Notes under the pieces: generated by a model | Told to the model about the DNA's origin: nothing | The model's database searches: none | Seen by the model: only the letters and a program-made list of their open reading frames with translations | Shown: piece after piece, positions 49,825-51,040 of the stretch | Position numbering within the stretch: the first letter of the stretch is position 1 | Layout: every line of letters starts with the position of its first letter | Assembly (NCBI GenBank): GCA_963555755.3 | Contig: OY820905.2 | Span: forward strand, 1,088,001 to 1,152,000 | Source of the DNA: Nitrospirales bacterium | Lineage (GTDB): Bacteria > Nitrospirota > Nitrospiria > Nitrospirales > UBA8639 | Length of the DNA: 64,000 nt | Direction of reading: 5' to 3' | Translations under genes and position numbers: made by a program

Positions 49825-51040
49825 CTTGTATAATGCAAGGAAGGGTTGTAGCCCAACTCACACGAGCTGCCTCTTGTCTGAAGAGGGCATAGCCAACGTA
49901 GGGAAAAGGCTGTACCCTCACGGTATTGTGAATCCTGGCATGATAGACCGTTTGCCCTATGGGAATCAGCCCGTGACTCAGCGCAGGTCGTCATGCCCTT
50001 TCTCTGATGAACCCGAACGGTTGCCTGGGACACCAAGCCCGTATCAACAAGGTTGGGAGACAGAGCGATGAAATCAAAATCCTCAGAATTGTTTATCGGT
50101 ATCGACATTTGTAAAGCTCGATTAGACGTGGCAGACAATGCCAATTCGCTTCCCTGGTCGGTAGCCAACAACGACGCCGGCATCGCCGCGCTGGTGGAGC
50201 GGCTCCACGTCCTTCACCCCACTCTCATCGTGATGGAAGCCACAGGGGGGCTGGAAACGCTTCTGTATGCGGCCTTAACCACCGCCGGGTTGCCGGCGGT
50301 CGTCATGAATCCCCGTCAGGTGCGGGACTTTGCCAAGGCCCTGGGCACCCTGGCCAAAACCGATGCCCTGGACGCCCGAATCTTGGCGCGCTTCGGGGCG
50401 GCGATCCAACCGGTGGTCCGGCCCATGAAAGACGCCACCACCCAGGAATTGACGGCCTTGGTGACACGGCGACGGCAGTTGCTTGCCATGCAGACGGCGG
50501 AAAAAACCCGCCTCCAGCAAGCAGCCAAATGGATCCGCAAAGACATCAACGCTCATATCAAAGCCCTGGAAAACCGAATCAAACAAATCGAAGGCCACAT
50601 TGCCGAGATTATTAAAAAAACCCCCGGATGGAAAGAAAAAGATTCGCTCATTCGAAGTGTGCCTGGTGTGGGCAACGTCTTGTCAATGAATCTCCTCAGT
50701 AGCCTGACCGAACTCGGGACGCTCAACCGAAGAGAAATCGCCACGCTGGTGGGCGTCGCCCCCTTAAACCGCGACAGTGGAAACGTTCGCGGCAACCGAA
50801 GGGTCTGGGGAGGACGGGCCCAAGTCCGCGCCGCCCTCTACATGGCGGCCCTGTCCGCTTCACGATTTAATCCGGTCATCAAACCCTTTTACCAACGCCT
50901 ACTTGAAAAAGGGAAAAAACCCAAAGTGGCCCTCACCGCCTGTATGCGAAAACTTCTGGTCATTCTGAATACGATGGCCAAAACCCAAACAGCATGGAAC
51001 CCCAATCAATATTCAACCCTTGACTTTAATCACGGTTGCT
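49825..51040 (+). mobile_element. IS110-family element (IS621-like, CT core)
   Basis: CT at both ends; reconstructed target GCATGCC-CT-GAGTC; reconstructed donor junction ACGGTTG-CT-TGTAT. Confidence 0.9.
49841..50065 (+). ncRNA. bridge RNA of the IS110 element (5' end approximate)
   Basis: target loop guides GTTTGCCCT (49950-49958) and GACTCAG (49975-49981); donor loop guides ACGGTTGC (50017-50024) and ACAAG (50047-50051); each pair closed by stems. Confidence 0.85.

Follow-up and report, generated by a model that had tools for sequence, protein, structure and literature searches.

The element and its recombinase

The window analyzed here is a stretch of 64,000 nt from contig OY820905.2 (positions 1,088,001–1,152,000) of the assembly GCA_963555755.3, which represents a Nitrospirales bacterium; all positions below are given within this window. 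At 49825–51040 the window carries an IS110 element that lies inside a MITE-like host repeat (Table 1). The boundaries of the element were set by aligning the ends of its genomic copies, and the CT cores at the two ends are 1,214 bp apart. The left non-coding end spans 241 nt and the right 0 nt, corresponding to the layout of the IS110 group (long left end, short right end). Assignment to the IS1111 group, in which a seekRNA is located in a long right non-coding end, was rejected because the coding sequence extends to the right core.

The encoded recombinase combines a DEDD RuvC-like domain with a Tnp domain that contains the catalytic serine. Its best match among solved structures was ISCro4/IS622 (9t56; E = 1.1e-36), and IS621 (8wt6) was matched at E = 1.5e-33. 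The initial annotation had described the 324-aa protein as compact, which is not borne out: the IS621 chain in the PDB has 328 aa, and 49 of 70 homologs with a stop codon of their own end 18 nt before the core, or about six codons earlier.

The genome carries 12 full-length copies of the element and one partial copy, and the catalytic DEDD and serine residues are intact in 12 of 12 copies. The sequence GCATGCC|CT stands at every one of the 12 left junctions and CT|GAGTC at every one of the 12 right junctions; the latter belong to 11 full copies and the partial one, the right end of one full-length copy having been lost. Because all left and right junctions agree, the target (GCATGCC-CT-GAGTC) and donor (ACGGTTG-CT-TGTAT) that had been reconstructed from the window copy are correct, and the flanks of the other copies likewise conform to the guides. 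The core is a short CT repeat at both element ends and is single in empty sites, the exact empty 14-mer target being present in 72 copies in the genome.

The most diverged copy (L192; G000:C1:2149029–2150215) lost its right end through another insertion, which has a weak match to DDE_Tnp_1_4 below the cutoff, and both of its donor guides are unlike those in the other 11 copies. A copy on the minus strand at G000:C1:344224 has a 6-nt deletion in the donor-loop stem, directly before the left donor guide, and is probably impaired in cis by this deletion. A further exact match to the donor 14-mer, at another place in the genome, lies in unrelated sequence and is not a tandem or circle junction. 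Among the matches listed in a plasmid search, only distant IS110 proteins were present (about 46–51% identity).

Table 1. Features of the IS110 element and its host repeat in the window.
Feature	Position	Strand	Basis or remark
Target-site duplication AAGCT, 5 bp, left copy	49729–49733	+	Repeated at 51248–51252
Host MITE-like repeat, left part with terminal inverted repeat	49734–49824	+	Repeat is 300 bp without the IS
Left target (positions 1–7), start of palindromic module	49818–49824	+	Identical at 12/12 left junctions
CT core, left copy	49825–49826	+	Junction alignment
Right donor TGTAT, overlapping -10 hexamer TATAAT (49829–49834)	49827–49834	+	Junction sequence
5' region of left end, about 100 nt	49835–49936	+	Common to close sub-clade; short or absent in many relatives
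Predicted target-binding loop	49937–49997	+	Helices 97–99% paired; two-sided changes in 11/14 pairs
Left target guide	49950/51–49958	+	In predicted target-binding loop
Right target guide, 7 nt	49975–49981	+	In predicted target-binding loop
Target-loop handshake	49982–49983	+	In predicted target-binding loop
Predicted donor-binding loop	50002–50065	+	Inner helices 98–100% paired; outer helix aligns poorly, 38–51%
Left donor guide	50017–50024	+	In predicted donor-binding loop
Right donor guide, 9 nt, bulged (ACAAG = 50047–50051)	50043–50051	+	7/7 pairing
Donor-loop handshake	50052–50053	+	In predicted donor-binding loop
IS110 recombinase, 324 aa; D13, E57, D99, D102, S237	50068–51042	+	PF01548, PF02371, NF033542 above cutoff
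-35 hexamer TTGACT (51020–51025) and left donor (51032–51038), both within coding sequence	51020–51038	+	
CT core, right copy; stop TGA 51040–51042	51039–51042	+	Core T plus first two target bases
Right target GAGTC and rest of host repeat, right inverted repeat	51041–51247	+	Includes three further palindromic modules
Target-site duplication, 5 bp, right copy	51248–51252	+	

Guides and fold of the predicted bridge RNA

The loops, stems, and guide segments that had been proposed for the left end are all present where they were placed, including the exact right target guide (GACTCAG) and an exact match to the left donor. Two of the proposed guides required revision. The left target match, put at 7 of 9, stands for TGCC and the core; its first G (G49950) is the same in all 39 aligned left ends regardless of target and is therefore scaffold, leaving TGCC and the core as the informative left match. 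This guide has one mismatch and one wobble against its target (a possible G-U further out). The right donor guide does contain the proposed ACAAG segment, but the real guide is 9 nt long and pairs 7/7 around a 2-nt bulge. The handshake positions are present in the window element and are correctly set.

When the 241-nt left end was subjected to 5,000 dinucleotide shuffles, the exact 7-nt right target guide arose in 79 and the exact 8-nt left donor guide in 11, while both together arose in none. A 7-of-9 left-target match is weak on its own, since 1,939 shuffles (39%) reached one. Folding of the isolated RNA gave a stability no greater than that of shuffles (z = -1.0; z = -1.37 for the two loops). 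With the single-sequence evidence thus mixed, the comparative test is the one that counts, and the predicted structure rests on covariation.

A scan of species genomes yielded 77 loci, of which automatic parsing recovered both ends in 55 and manual parsing in 1 more. Alignment with the window element included 38 of these 56 parsed elements, those left out being mostly near-duplicates; one aligned row that lacked a flank was dropped, and the guide statistics refer to 38 elements with 35 distinct guide sets. The covariation called for in the initial annotation was recovered: the helices of the target loop and the inner helices of the donor loop are 97–100% paired, with a covariation score that none of 500 shuffles attained. 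In the homolog alignment, support for the outer donor-loop helix is poor.

Guides also track the targets of the elements that encode them. Across the 35 distinct guide sets, the left guide matched on average 4.26 of the five core-adjacent bases of its own target versus 2.77 when permuted (scored as the best of three registers, real and permuted alike), and the right guide matched 4.43 of its own five right-target bases versus 2.41. Neither score was equalled in 10,000 permutations, values that overstate the significance because the homologs are related. The left donor guide matches 7/7 in 34 of 38 elements. Under the handshake rule set out for IS621, position 7 pairs with the non-cognate strand (PMC11208158). 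Here, P81 pairs with donor base d7 in 36 of 38 elements and P166 with target base t7 in 37 of 38; this donor-loop base follows its target, with A or T at P166 in five elements that carry T or A at t7, and locking cognate pairs at the handshake positions occur in 0 of 38. Collectively, the 12 genomic copies and the 38 parsed elements support an IS621-type bridge RNA layout with four guides and a palindromic repeat as target.

Five close sisters (L050, L111, L188, L002, and L014) have target guides that changed naturally and that match different targets, which makes them ready material for reprogramming tests.

No conserved fold was found in the 5' region of about 100 nt, where single-sequence folds vary among close relatives. 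In many homologs (L004, L010, L015, L021, L024, L027, and others) the target loop follows the -10 box almost directly, and natural bridge RNAs that lack a 5' stem-loop therefore seem common. A pairing of the first 5 bases of the element with the right donor guide, returned by RNAalifold, reflects guide complementarity and not structure.

A putative promoter at the joined ends

Joining the two ends of the element gives TTGACT-17-TATAAT, which at the sequence level matches the sigma70 consensus at 11 of 12 positions; no promoter match was found on the plus strand of the integrated form. The end-to-end circle joint was absent from the contigs of all 4 public runs examined, out of 24 listed, which is uninformative because contigs drop rare forms. 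An empty-site joint in runs X1 and X5 was rejected as a sign of excision, since the abundance of empty repeats accounts for it. The element is also covered in two RNA runs, but this is no demonstration of transcription. A second, 14-kb contig of the assembly (G000:C2) is a near-exact duplicate of sequence on the main contig and begins with a 2.17-kb multicopy element; it may represent either a circle that was excised or an artefact of assembly.

The host repeat and the target module

Including the IS, the window copy of the MITE-like repeat spans 49734–51247. The 11-mer specified by the guides occurs at 81 empty sites, 75 of which lie beside the terminal inverted repeat of this MITE-like repeat versus 2.3 expected. 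Duplications of 5 bp flank 40 of 83 examined repeat sites versus 3.9% by chance pairing, and the commonest repeat length is 214 bp. The central part of the repeat is present in 271 copies, and the module is optional given that a module or an IS junction lies within 130 bp in 85 of these. The target module is a weak palindrome (-1.8 kcal/mol as DNA) with the core in the 5' arm of a CCCT/AGGG stem, and it may resemble a CGTC-type REP or Ssn-related motif. The 24-nt module is shared by 15 of 71 searched genomes of the family. In the window copy of the repeat, 51066–51229 holds three more palindromic modules, likewise optional, and 242 related CTGA...CGAAGG palindromes were counted genome-wide, 12 of which are IS right junctions. 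Published accounts define CGTC-type REP or Ssn-related motifs by a CGTC-like foot with a stem of 8–9 bp or by a degenerate motif (PMC3733652, PMC11893778).

Elsewhere in the genome, an IS1595-family element of 1,210 bp with a 5-bp duplication (G000:C1:3591602–3592811; L191:103–1312) shares the ends of the repeat and contains the whole hairpin repeat at one end, without the module. These shared sequences suggest that it is likely the autonomous partner, or mobilizer, of the MITE-like repeat.

Proposed mode of insertion and alternative explanations

What the sequence itself shows comprises the ends, the four guides, their covariation, the setting of the handshake bases, a promoter split between the ends, and catalytic residues that are intact. 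These features point to an IS110 element of the IS621 type. Its left end is predicted to specify a bridge RNA, which likely guides the recombinase to the CT core within a palindromic module of a multicopy MITE-like repeat; we assign this reading a probability of roughly 0.92. By analogy with IS621 (PMC11208160, PMC11208158, PMC13626964), rare and low-level excision or copy-out would produce a circle whose junction would rebuild the sigma70 promoter. The RNA and recombinase would then assemble a tetramer in which the target loop would pair with TGCC-CT-GAGTC and the donor loop with the junction; top strands would be exchanged at the core, and handshake pairing would bias the reaction toward insertion. 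Whether such circles are cut out or copied is under debate (bioRxiv 10.64898/2026.08.31.748434). The repeat likely serves as a harmless, self-renewing landing pad.

An unlikely alternative is that base pairing is insufficient and that a DNA hairpin formed by the palindrome provides a second layer of recognition, compensating for the short left guide. This would fit the limitation of firm pairing on the left to TGCC and the core, the position of the core in the 5' arm of the stem, the absence of insertions from all six 11-mer sites outside the inverted-repeat pattern, and the precedent of ISPpu10 (bioRxiv 10.64898/2026.03.19.712850). However, most 11-mer sites lie in the repeat, such that 12 of 12 insertions there are expected from sequence with a chance of about 0.4 by simple arithmetic, and the additional layer is therefore not needed. 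The fold of the module as DNA is also weak, and the geometry differs: the stem of ISPpu10 is described as a 5' extension that pairs with the left target, whereas the weak stem here is formed with sequence 3' of the target.

It is more doubtful still that many copies spread as passengers in the host MITE, mobilized by an IS1595-type transposase instead of inserting through bridge recombination of their own. The IS1595-family element described above supplies a candidate transposase with the same ends and its own 5-bp duplication, such duplications are kept in 7 of 11 filled repeats, and one pair of copies, 3 bases apart, has the most similar hosts. Against this, two copies that differ by 1 base occupy clearly different host variants, by host-repeat distances that are crude and include unrelated flanks, and relatives with changed guides (L050, L111, and L188) occupy matching, different targets. 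Passenger spread may explain the one copy pair, not the whole set.

Coincidental guide-like matches in an ordinary non-coding end, with which the unremarkable fold z-scores and the commonness of a 7-of-9 left match would agree, can be dismissed almost entirely given that the two exact guides never arose together in the shuffles, that guides covary with targets, donors, and handshake bases, and that the stems are conserved.

A stop codon supplied by the target

The recombinase gene has no stop codon of its own. Its frame crosses the -35 box and the left donor to the core, where TGA is formed from the core T and the GA of the target. A survey of 187 loci, from which one locus of genome G280 was left out, identified 102 with an intact gene and both ends, representing 79 distinct elements at 95% identity. 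A stop of their own was found in 70 of the 79, and in 49 of these it is a TGA inside the -35 box. The other nine are open up to the core, and each of them is located in a CT|GA site, versus 24 of the 70 elements with their own stop. The simplest reading of these sequences is that an internal stop can be lost once the programmed target supplies one. This pattern is only suggestive because it comprises about three lineages: a quick and provisional tree puts the nine stop-less elements in three separate positions. Borrowing the stop from a target GA likely restricts lasting insertions to sites of the CT|GA type, and if the borrowed stop is under selection, the targets open to the evolution of such elements are limited. 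In practice, any construct of this recombinase needs an added stop codon.

In the circle form, the frame would stay open across the entire left end and close at a TGA overlapping the start codon, for a product of 405 aa. Selection for this read-through as a coding region is not supported: 5 of the 9 stop-less elements keep the frame open, versus 20 of 70 controls. Of the 94 in-frame substitutions counted across 10 close relatives, 1 created a stop versus 3.8 expected and 26 were synonymous versus 21.8 expected, which is no clear excess; the frame is broken in L014 and L188. One could imagine that the missing stop acts as a built-in checkpoint in which only cognate CT|GA integrants yield the 324-aa form, circles yield 405 aa, and off-target copies acquire random tails, so that the form of the recombinase, and perhaps RNA folding, reports correct integration. 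We consider this improbable. No control layer of this kind was found in the IS110 papers searched. A target-supplied stop in IS110 was likewise not described in the literature searched, outside of which most subscription papers and ISfinder notes fall, and neither were IS110 bridge elements in Nitrospira.

Relationship to characterized systems

With IS621 of Escherichia coli (PMC11208160, PMC11208158, PMC13626964) the window element shares the RuvC-like DEDD and serine domains, the CT core, a left-end RNA with two loops and a bulged 9-nt right donor guide, the handshake rule (with 1 Watson-Crick pair before exchange and 2 plus a wobble after it here, 1 and 3 in IS621), a junction promoter, a palindromic repeat target, and a similar length. 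The proteins, in contrast, are distant, as the E-value given above indicates, and the native right target guide has 7 nt here versus 4 nt in IS621. The window element further differs in lacking a right non-coding end, in taking its stop codon from the target, in its longer 5' region, and in having its target inside a MITE-like repeat. Its left guide is one base shorter than that of most relatives.

ISCro4/IS622 has the same bridge layout, and the study that describes it predicted bridge RNAs of 72 orthologs likewise (bioRxiv 10.1101/2025.05.14.653916); IS622 was found by experiment to be active in human cells, whereas the element described here is known from its sequence. ISPpu10 of Pseudomonas putida is also an IS110 element with a CT core that has many identical palindromic repeats as targets. 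In IS1239 of Streptococcus pyogenes (PMC13630536), the transposase frame also leaves the element and ends in flanking DNA, but there the C-termini vary after a frameshift, whereas here the programmed target gives an immediate and constant stop.

Targeting of REP sequences by IS110 elements is already established. Two supplementary files of Durrant 2024 (PMC11208160) contain the exact donor 14-mer, 61 times in one and 110 in the other, and the exact target was not found in seven such files, two of which were covered in part. The window element is a clear, if unexceptional, new member of an RNA-guided family that is already known, and it leaves the mechanism unchanged. It is a natural bridge recombinase that has multiplied recently, whose 7-nt right target guide pairs in full and which has naturally retargeted sisters. 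This makes it a reasonable ortholog to screen, and the about 80 empty sites in its host offer a handle for programmable insertion in a lineage that is poorly tractable.

Other features of the window include an IS256-family transposase (55267–56547) and a Pal/OmpA-like protein with a six-fold repeat of 6 residues (51679–52722, minus strand). Beside the latter lies a tRNA gene (51445–51528, minus strand); in an Rfam scan of the 64-kb window only tRNA was matched, and no bridge RNA family.
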